A stretch of DNA of 397 bases, taken from assembly GCF_003334315.1 (NCBI RefSeq), contig NZ_QOWR01000134.1; one strand, written 5' to 3'. This DNA is from Escherichia coli (GTDB lineage: Bacteria > Pseudomonadota > Gammaproteobacteria > Enterobacterales > Enterobacteriaceae). Of this stretch, positions 1-397 are shown piece by piece. Below the pieces are notes generated by a model. The model was not told the origin of the DNA, made no database searches, and saw only the letters and a program-made list of their open reading frames with translations. The translations under genes were made by a program, and so were the position numbers. The stretch's first letter is position 1. Every line of letters begins with the position of its first letter.

Positions 1-20
1 TTATCGTGAGAGTAATTCAT
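1..20 (-). CDS. insL: IS186 transposase InsL, N-terminal fragment (first 6 codons, MNYSHD...); CDS runs off the window start
   Basis: ATG at 20..18 on the minus strand, followed by AAT TAC TCT CAC GAT = M N Y S H D, matching the recalled N-terminus of the IS186 transposase. It sits 55 nt inside the putative element end. Only 20 nt are visible. Confidence 0.55.
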
Positions 21-52
21 CGGCACGTTAAATCATATCAGGCGTAATACCA

Positions 53-75
53 CAACCCTTAAGTTAGCGCTTATG
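53..75 (-). repeat. IS186 terminal inverted repeat (about 23 bp)
   Basis: Minus-strand read 75->53 is CATAAGCGCTAACTTAAGGGTTG, matching the recalled IS186 terminal inverted repeat. The partner repeat would lie outside the window, so the inverted pairing cannot be verified here. Confidence 0.6.
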
Positions 76-96
76 GGATTACTCCCCGCACAACGG

Positions 97-249
97 CTAC
101 TTCTTCGGTTCGTAAGCGAGAACAGCCTTAAACTCAATATTACGTTCCTTCACCGTAAACTCACACAGCGAGTCTCCGACCAGAAGCGTAAATCCCAGCA
201 CCGTTAAACACAGCACTATGACTGCCGCAAGGGCATATTTCGTCAGCAT
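97..249 (-). CDS. hokE: Hok/Gef-family type I toxin, 50 aa (small membrane-damaging host-killing peptide)
   Basis: ATG at 249..247, stop TAG at 99..97. Product [50 protein letters not shown] has an N-terminal hydrophobic helix (about 178-237 in window coordinates), the conserved SLCE motif and the AYE C-terminal motif typical of Hok/Gef peptides (compare Hok ...SLCEIRY...AYES, Gef ...DLCEVHI...AYESE). It is near-identical to my recollection of E. coli HokE. A GGAGG ribosome-binding site lies 10 nt upstream. Confidence 0.85.
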
Positions 250-285
250 GTTTATATTGCCTCCATGCGAAGAAGGGACTACCAT
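97..285 (-). CDS. Possible mok-like (modulation of killing) reading frame: in-frame N-terminal extension of hok from ATG at 285 (62 aa)
   Basis: In-frame ATG at 285..283 lies 12 codons upstream of the hok start. In hok/sok loci, translation of an overlapping upstream mok frame is required for hok translation and is the target of Sok. No ATG-initiated ORF exists in the other two frames of the leader (M P R V stop at 361; M E A I stop at 266). No clear ribosome-binding site precedes the 285 ATG, so this is weak. Confidence 0.25.
257..285 (+). promoter_or_regulatory. Candidate sigma70 promoter for the Sok-like RNA (-35 TTGCCT at 257-262, 17-bp spacer, -10 TACCAT at 280-285)
   Basis: Hexamers match the consensus at 4/6 (TTGACA) and 4/6 (TATAAT, with A2 and T6 retained) with optimal 17-bp spacing. 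The predicted start near 292-294 is consistent with an antisense RNA covering the mok-like initiation region. Sequence-only prediction. Confidence 0.3.
260..264 (-). promoter_or_regulatory. Shine-Dalgarno sequence (GGAGG) for hok
   Basis: Plus-strand CCTCC at 260-264 is GGAGG on the minus strand, with a 10-nt spacer (CAATATAAAC) to the hok ATG at 249. Confidence 0.7.
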
Positions 286-293
286 CCAAATTG

Positions 294-352
294 TTCGGGT
301 TTGGAGTGGCAGCCCCAGGGTGTACTGACCCCAAAAAGTTGGACAGTTAAAC
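294..352 (+). ncRNA. sokE: Putative Sok-like antisense RNA (antitoxin of the type I TA system); boundaries approximate
   Basis: Position is inferred from hok/sok architecture: Sok is transcribed antisense to the hok mRNA leader and covers the mok translation-initiation region, here just upstream of the ATG at 285. A candidate promoter lies at 257-285 on the + strand. No convincing intrinsic terminator is visible, so the 3' end is uncertain. Confidence 0.4.
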
Positions 353-397
353 ACGAGGCATATAGGTCTGATTCCGATATTCAATTGGAGTCAGACC

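Follow-up and report, generated by a model that had tools for sequence, protein, structure and literature searches.

A 397-nucleotide (nt) stretch of Escherichia coli contig NZ_QOWR01000134.1 (assembly GCF_003334315.1), hereafter the window, very probably represents the chromosomal hokE/sokE type I toxin–antitoxin locus, doubly interrupted by the insertion sequences (IS) IS150 and IS186. The sense strand of the hokE locus is the minus strand of the window. As judged from sequence, the sole conserved and curated product of the locus is HokE, a predicted 50-amino-acid (aa) membrane toxin initiated at ATG 249. A 95-aa open reading frame (ORF) that runs from TTG 384 through the toxin gene is a chimera of IS150, leader, and hokE DNA. 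The hokE locus in the window strain is most likely a silent remnant.

Megablast against 5,426 complete E. coli genomes places the middle of the window at the hokE locus, flanked by ybdK and entD, and matches both window ends to sequences at many chromosomal and plasmid sites. In strain 300709 (L001), which is 100% identical to the window, the Prokaryotic Genome Annotation Pipeline (PGAP) annotates three co-oriented genes, an IS150-family transposase, hokE (window 249-97), and an IS421/IS186 transposase (start at window 20). The coding sequence of the IS150-family transposase, annotated with a programmed frameshift, ends at the equivalent of window 347. A 90-nt probe of the IS150–hokE junction is fully covered in 550 of the 5,426 genomes, E. 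coli B and C strains among them; the junction allele is common, inherited, and natural. A doubly interrupted hokE remnant is already known, and hokE/sokE, IS186, and IS150 all belong to known systems.

The 50-aa product is identical to the curated K-12 HokE. Its start codon (249-247) stands 10 nt after the GGAGG Shine–Dalgarno (SD) sequence (264-260). The free energy (dG) of anti-SD pairing, −9.3 kcal/mol, ranks in the top 2% of all window positions and compares with −8.5 for hokB and hokC. A genome scan of one-genome-per-species contigs yielded 57 full-length hokE-type loci from 15 named genera (Escherichia, Citrobacter, Klebsiella, Kluyvera, Pseudocitrobacter, Phytobacter, Kosakonia, Trabulsiella, and Yokenella among them) and several unclassified Enterobacteriaceae. 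The same start ATG, with M(L/P)TKYAL, is used in 57/57 of these loci, and GGAGGCAA is kept in every aligned row except L045, which reads GCAGGCAA. A profile match, an annotation shared with a K-12-derived strain, and ybdK–hokE–entD synteny place the predicted protein in the Hok/Gef family (PF01848) as the orthologue of K-12 HokE. An earlier note on this DNA, made from the letters alone, had taken the toxin to be the 50-aa product of the internal ATG with its GGAGG site; the K-12 identity, the PF01848 match, and the shared start bear this out. Strain PK8261 (L003:1573-2227) carries two tandem hokE copies ~500 bp apart, each with its own leader; several hokE copies have been reported in E. coli W (PMC3032704).

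IS150 lies in the hokE leader, 69–71 nt upstream of the hokE ATG and in hokE orientation. The native sequence at the target is ATCAACCC/TGGGGC (slash, junction), and the junctions in strain 300709 read ...ATCAACCC/TGTACTGCACCC... and ...GGGGTCAGTACA/CCCTGGGGC... (L001:1131-1140, 2570-2580). The two junction reads define window 321-397 as IS150 and CCC 318-320 as its target-site duplication. The element has TG...CA terminal inverted repeats (TGTACTGCACCC..., ...GGGGTCAGTACA), CCC at both flanks, and a frameshifted transposase gene. Its end in the window comprises the last 17 transposase codons (397-350), the stop codon TAA (349-347), and the terminal inverted repeat (TGTACTGACCCC, plus strand from 321). 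IS150 insertions beside hok genes recur in experimental evolution of E. coli B, with independent laboratory insertions at REL606 position 16,972 in three lineages (PMC5419217). REL606 position 16,972 (L068 322-324) coincides with the homologous CCC in ATCAACCC/GAGGC and precedes hokC by 71 nt. There appears to be a site-specific IS150 hotspot in hok leaders.

The earlier note had called the 95-aa ORF (97..384, minus strand, from TTG) an over-call, and both the coordinates and the verdict hold, the latter on firmer grounds, because the 5′ part of the ORF is mobile-element DNA. TTG 384 sits among the final IS150 transposase codons but out of their frame, and the ORF then crosses the terminal repeat. 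The N-terminal part described as featureless is thus not hok DNA; residues 1–21 are IS150-encoded, which the earlier reader could not see. The stretch upstream of TTG 384 (GGUCUGACUCCAA) contains nothing SD-like (anti-SD dG of −2.2 kcal/mol, compared with a window-wide mean of −2.8). The Pfam HOK_GEF (PF01848) match is limited to residues 50–91 (E 5.5e-7), and the NCBIfam HokA and Hok-family models match residues 46–95 with scores under their cut-offs. Among ~15 billion predicted proteins, the exact 95-aa product was not found; that collection has at least 1,000 contigs apiece for the 50-aa form (named HokE, HOKE_ECOLI) and for the 83-aa form of K-12 type, and 235 for the 62-aa form. The window descends from a K-12-type hokE allele, so the in-frame leader was open up to the IS150 junction and the IS150 frame could lengthen the ORF to 95 aa. 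The ORF exists solely because the IS150 end happens to have an alternative frame that runs open into that of hokE. That it is a genuine gene product is next to impossible: the reading frame is uninterrupted, but its TTG start has no SD sequence, its first 21 codons come from reading the transposase 3′ end and terminal repeat in an alternative frame, it cannot exist in the ~90% of genomes that carry no such insertion, its product is absent from the protein collection, and in IS-free strain A21 the in-frame leader is shut by a stop codon 48 nt upstream of hok. ORF finders assign HokE at least five lengths (50, 62, 67, 83, and 95 aa), of which the 95-aa one is made by a mobile element and should not be propagated in annotation.

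The native Escherichia leaders carry a perfect LexA box (CTGTATAAATAAACAG), the promoter, the mRNA 5′ end (GGGUGCCU), and a conserved ATG at +49, hereafter ATG(+49). The LexA box lies just upstream of the native hokE promoter (L004:1380-1395 in an IS-free E. coli locus; L001:1009-1024 in the window strain), consistent with published work in which hokE is described as SOS-induced. In the window strain, the LexA box, promoter, mRNA 5′ end, and ATG(+49) are 1.4 kb from hokE, beyond IS150, and the first ~75 nt of the hok mRNA leader are replaced by IS150. The Rfam hok-leader model RF01794 matches the IS-free locus L004 over its full length with 86.2 bits; in the window, the match is cut at its 5′ end and scores 24.4 bits against a gathering threshold of 59. 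The IS150 end (365-397, minus strand) has its own hairpin, GGUCUGACUCC...GGAAUCAGACC. The match of this hairpin (GGUCUGA...UCAGACC) to the first helix of the model is spurious, as its bases are IS150, and it inflates the weak RF01794 match. RF01794 is named 'sok antitoxin' though its match is to the hok-sense strand. The native leader also gives weak mir-1990 matches, which were discarded as fortuitous palindrome similarity.

Pairing between the 5′ and 3′ ends is typical of hok mRNAs. In the minimum-energy fold of the native hokE mRNA, the 5′ GGGUGCCU (+1..+8) pairs with AGGCACCU, ~55 nt after the stop codon, in such a fold-back arrangement; in the window, the first partner has been removed by IS150 and the second by IS186. 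In an IS-free locus, hokE would be transcribed from the LexA-controlled promoter into a ~360-nt mRNA. This mRNA would be kept untranslatable by pairing of its ends, by an AUG-sequestering hairpin, and by pairing of SokE with the leader, SokE being made from a putative promoter that overlaps the hok SD sequence. In the window strain, hokE has been cut off from its promoter and LexA box, from the first ~75 nt of its mRNA, from both fold-back partners, and from most of SokE; the locus is most likely silent. The K-12 hok loci have been described as inactive (PMC1635323), and the window allele has lost more elements than the K-12 hokE allele.

The remaining leader retains the putative sokE promoter and the Sok-target hairpin. 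Our comparison comprised 59 rows, with L004 (IS-free E. coli) and the window added to the 57 full-length loci; 58 were alignable, L031 lacking the conserved block. The stretch GGAT(G)nTAGyCyCTTCTTyGCAnGGAGGCAA is indel-free in all alignable rows. Length variation is confined to a 3-, 4-, or 7-nt spacer after GGAGGCAA, which places the conserved ATG (ATG 285 in the window) 32, 33, or 36 nt from the hok ATG. On the opposite strand, the −35 element TTGCCT is invariant in 59/59 rows, and the spacer is exactly 17 nt throughout. The −10 hexamer reads TAACAT in 40 of the alignable rows, TACCAT in 10, TACTAT in 7, and TGCAAT in 1, and the annotated K-12 SokE 5′ end is 7 nt past it. A promoter and terminator consensus scan of the window found nothing, the putative sokE promoter having 8/12 matches at a threshold of 9/12. 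Of the antisense gene, only this promoter and the first 28 nt (257-320, plus strand) remain joined; the other ~32 nt of the 60-nt SokE, including its 3′ end, are split from the promoter by IS150.

An 86-nt fragment with the Sok-target hairpin folds at −31.4 kcal/mol (z of −4.7). Across 32 distinct sequences, 89.5% of the cells are paired, compared with 30–46% with slid partners. Changes on both sides are found in 36 cells, compared with 11.8 in shuffles, and 0/500 shuffles reach 36. RNAalifold on the raw alignment gives only 13 pairs, owing to indels, and the hairpin was therefore supplied explicitly for the covariation test. The hairpin persists in the predicted fold of the chimeric transcript.

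Translation of hok genes can depend on an overlapping upstream frame, mok. The mok and hok starts of plasmid R1, at +116 and +174, are separated by 58 nt and lie in different frames, and ribosomes have to translate mok up to the hok SD sequence (PMC9841398). In MG1655, mokB is 58 nt upstream of hokB and out of frame, and mokC is 57 nt upstream of hokC, in frame and with a common stop codon. Both start 6–7 nt after a conserved GAGGC and 9–11 nt inside the Sok duplex, with an SD dG of −5.9 kcal/mol. E. coli hokE has CCA where the canonical mok start would be; no mokE is annotated in MG1655, and the term "mokE" was not found in the open-access literature. We surveyed 59 native loci (the 57 full-length loci, L004, and K-12). 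An ATG or GTG with an SD dG of −5 kcal/mol or lower that reads through the hok SD sequence is present in 13, a canonical GAGGC-N6-7-ATG start is present in only about 10, and no candidate start of any kind is present in 3.

If hokE needs a mok-like leader ORF, ATG(+49) would be a better native E. coli candidate than ATG 285; IS150 has removed it from the window. A functional mokE of E. coli that starts there, 99–100 nt upstream of the hokE ATG, is conceivable but rather doubtful. ATG(+49) is kept in 8/8 native Escherichia leaders (e.g. L004:1473, L008:438, L010-L014). It has an SD-like GAGGU at proper spacing (dG of −6.3 kcal/mol, the equal of mokB and mokC) and is inside the SokE-complementary region, and gene callers choose the 83-aa form on at least 1,000 contigs. 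However, two 1-nt indels shift its ORF among all three frames relative to hok across strains, giving an in-frame 83-aa form in K-12-type alleles, a 62-aa form in the R1-type frame, and a 22-aa form in the third frame (L010, L012). In addition, it is absent outside Escherichia, it is placed in the 3′ strand of the first leader hairpin, and it is at the SokE 3′ end, not the 5′ end as for the starts of R1 mok, mokB, and mokC.

It is also conceivable, though rather doubtful, that the hokE subfamily has no mok at all, with HokE translated directly from the strong GGAGG after mRNA refolding and SokE triggering RNA cleavage instead of obstructing a leader ORF. The scarcity of SD-bearing read-through starts and of canonical mok starts in the native loci, together with the three loci that have no candidate, favors this view, as does the hokE SD sequence, which pairs more strongly than its hokB and hokC counterparts. 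Mok identification is described as 'not trivial' in a recent survey (10.1101/2025.08.07.668861). On the other hand, mok translation is required in R1, a conserved hairpin hides the hok AUG and has to be opened in some way, and SokE pairing lies at least 44 nt upstream of this codon, too distant for a direct block.

The earlier note had put forward ATG 285 as a possible mok-like start. The codon is indeed in frame, opens a 62-aa form, and is conserved. However, it has no SD sequence, is base-paired, and lies outside the Sok duplex, and its frame relative to hok varies. In the 58 alignable rows the triplet reads ATG in 50 (86%), ATA in 7, and ATT in 1. The ORF from the conserved ATG reaches the hok SD sequence in 48 of these 50 rows, and the window frame is open from 285 through 249. 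In 29 loci, the ORF is a 12-codon upstream ORF (e.g. MLVSSLQGGKTC followed by a stop codon) whose TGA overlaps the hok start (ATGCTGA), a translational-coupling layout with examples in L015-L055. In 19 rows (18 loci and the window), it is an in-frame extension of hok, and in 2 loci it stops before the hok SD sequence. The in-frame arrangement in Escherichia is made by a 4-nt insertion in the SD–ATG spacer.

We consider it unlikely that ATG 285 is a genuine mok-like start at which initiating ribosomes melt the downstream hairpin and expose the hok SD sequence and AUG, yielding a 62-aa N-terminally extended HokE in E. coli and, in most other genera, a 12-codon upstream ORF with UGA over the hok start (AUGCUGA). 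The conservation of the triplet and the read-through of its ORF speak for such a start, and an in-frame layout is also seen in the curated mokC–hokC pair. In R1, it is enough for mok to be translated to the hok SD sequence (PMC9841398), and the SokE 5′ end (293) is 8 nt upstream of ATG 285, within a ribosome footprint. By the same 8 nt, however, the triplet is outside the Sok duplex. Its SD dG is −0.9 kcal/mol, compared with −5.9 for mokB and mokC, and it is fully paired. The 8 rows without ATG and the 2 with a stop codon before the SD sequence all have intact hok ORFs, hokB has ATC at the homologous position, and the frame is not conserved. Within the triplet, A and T are complementary to T6 and A5, both invariant, in the sokE −10 element; the G is the complement of the variable position 4 and pairs with C in 26/32 distinct sequences. 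Conservation of the triplet would thus stem mainly from its place in the SokE −10 box and in the Sok-target hairpin, whose 3′ arm contains it. Because the same bases form the −10 box and a conserved hairpin, conservation cannot settle the role of ATG 285 as a start, and non-coding constraints would suffice for most of it. Aligning the leaders, proposed earlier as a way to see which start is conserved, supports the 50-aa start (57/57), whereas the ATG 285 column is confounded in this way. In the start-site ribosome profiling papers searched, hokE goes unmentioned in the text, and the supplements covered list neither hok nor mok.

There is, correspondingly, a small chance that in the hokE subfamily the canonical mok has been replaced by an SD-less mini-ORF that starts from the ATG in the Sok −10 box. 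If so, the mini-ORF in 29/58 rows would represent termination–reinitiation, and one triplet would serve as promoter element, stem pairs, and start codon. The 4-nt insertion in the Escherichia SD–AUG spacer would then fuse the mini-ORF in frame, and ATG 285 would give a 62-aa HokE proteoform. In the window, the question is largely moot, as the promoter, the 5′ part of the leader, the fold-back partners, and most of the antitoxin are lost. More generally, conservation of an upstream ATG is not readable as start-codon evidence where its bases also form an opposite-strand −10 box and a conserved RNA stem.

Turning to other leader frames, the earlier note stated that they hold only four-codon ORFs. 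This is correct for ATG starts, ATG 266 (MEAI) and ATG 361 (MPRV, the C-terminus of the IS150 transposase) each opening an ORF of four codons; with TTG starts, however, the third frame holds a 57-aa ORF. As a real mok, the 57-aa frame is rejected for the window, since its start is in IS150, and the K-12-type allele has no native ATG in that frame.

Several points weigh against our reading of the locus as a silent remnant in which the ATG 285 column is held mainly by non-coding constraints. The IS150 transposase gene is co-oriented with hokE, and its read-through could still drive hokE transcription. The SokE ends are taken from the MG1655 annotation. The fold-back duplex is not significant alone in a shuffle control (126/300 shuffles equally good), and the fold-back claim draws on what is known of the family and on how the full native mRNA folds at minimum energy. 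ATG is kept in 86% of the rows although C at −10 position 4 is non-consensus for sigma-70, and some selection for a start codon in this column is therefore possible. In about half of the related loci, no ATG other than the equivalent of ATG 285 opens an ORF that extends to the hok SD sequence. In addition, the ATG(+49) ORF stops 32 nt before the hok ATG in L010 and L012 and differs in frame between strains, so it is not a clean mok.

Table 1. Features of the window, in order of position (strand: −, hokE sense; +, sokE sense).
Feature	Position	Strand	Remarks
Left end of IS186/IS421	1..75	−	Repeat CATAAGCGCTAACTTAAGGGTTG; transposase ATG 20-18; boundary uncertain by 1–3 nt (MG1655 record places it at the equivalent of 78)
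Remnant of hokE 3′ untranslated region	76..96	−	Native GC-rich hairpin GCGGGGAGUAAUCCCCGC split by IS186
hokE coding sequence	97..249	−	Type I toxin, 50 aa plus stop codon (99-97); K-12 allele with Ala8; annotated hokE, WP_000956455.1 / YP_025295.1; PF01848
95-aa ORF	97..384	−	Chimera, not a gene; starts at TTG 384; codons 1–21 IS150, 22–45 hokE leader, 46–95 hokE
57-aa ORF	161..334	−	TTG start in IS150 repeat, chimeric; covers leader and overlaps hok; frame of R1 mok and mokB
Second hairpin	239..274	−	GCAUG, immediately 5′ of the SD sequence, pairs with CAUGC at the hok AUG; GAGG in loop; last helix of RF01794
sokE promoter (putative)	257..285	+	−35 TTGCCT 257-262, 17-nt spacer, −10 TACCAT 280-285
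GGAGG SD sequence of hokE	260..264	−	Anti-SD dG −9.3 kcal/mol; overlaps sokE −35 box on plus strand
Sok-target stem-loop (conserved hok-leader hairpin)	275..316	−	GGGGCUGCCA...UAGUCCC; ATG 285 in its 3′ arm
In-frame ATG, start of 62-aa form	283..285	−	12 codons upstream of ATG 249; no SD sequence; base-paired; complement of sokE −10 bases 4–6
First 28 nt of SokE antisense RNA	293..320	+	MG1655 sokE 607733..607792 maps to window 293->352
IS150 target-site duplication, CCC	318..320		3 bp; CCC on both IS150 flanks in L001, single CCC in IS-free loci
Right end of IS150 (IS3 family)	321..397	−	Matches IS150 copies across many chromosomal and plasmid sites; strain 300709 shows both junctions

At the other end of the window, IS186 sits in the 3′ arm of a GC-rich hairpin (GCGGGGAGTAATCCCCGC) directly after the hokE stop codon (native L004:1737-1754). 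On the plus strand, PGAP annotates an 89-aa 'hypothetical protein', WP_072020182.1, antisense to the hokE leader and start (L004:1335-1604, minus strand of that locus) and frameshifted in K-12-type strains. A 36-aa plus-strand ORF in the window (218-328) is its remnant, shortened by IS150. WP_072020182.1 is probably a spurious call over the sokE/hok-leader region.

The closest known system is hokE/sokE of E. coli K-12 (b4415/b4835), a locus reportedly treated by Pedersen and Gerdes in 1999, as cited in PMC1635323. The two are identical in HokE, in the leader starting at −71, in the SokE promoter, and in the IS186 insertion, which begins ~21 nt after the hokE stop codon exactly as in MG1655. 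The window differs from K-12 by an additional IS150 in the leader and sokE, an arrangement it shares with the 550 complete genomes; lost through this insertion are the LexA box and promoter, the 5′-terminal 75 nt of the mRNA, ATG(+49), and the 3′ half of SokE. With hok/mok/sok of R1, the locus shares a ~50-aa Hok, an antisense Sok from a promoter overlapping the hok initiation region, a leader hairpin with a GAGGC/GCCUC base, and, in the native hokE locus, the 5′–3′ fold-back pairing. Unlike in R1, where mok starts 8 nt after GAGG, E. coli hokE has CCA in that place. MokB and mokC have the SD sequence and the position in the Sok duplex that are both wanting at ATG 285; as mokC is in frame with hokC, an in-frame mok extension of hok is not unprecedented. 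The insertions from E. coli B evolution (PMC5419217) resemble that in the window in that IS150 lands in the sok/hok-leader region, at the homologous CCC of ATCAACCC; they are laboratory events, whereas the hokE insertion in the window is natural and widely inherited.

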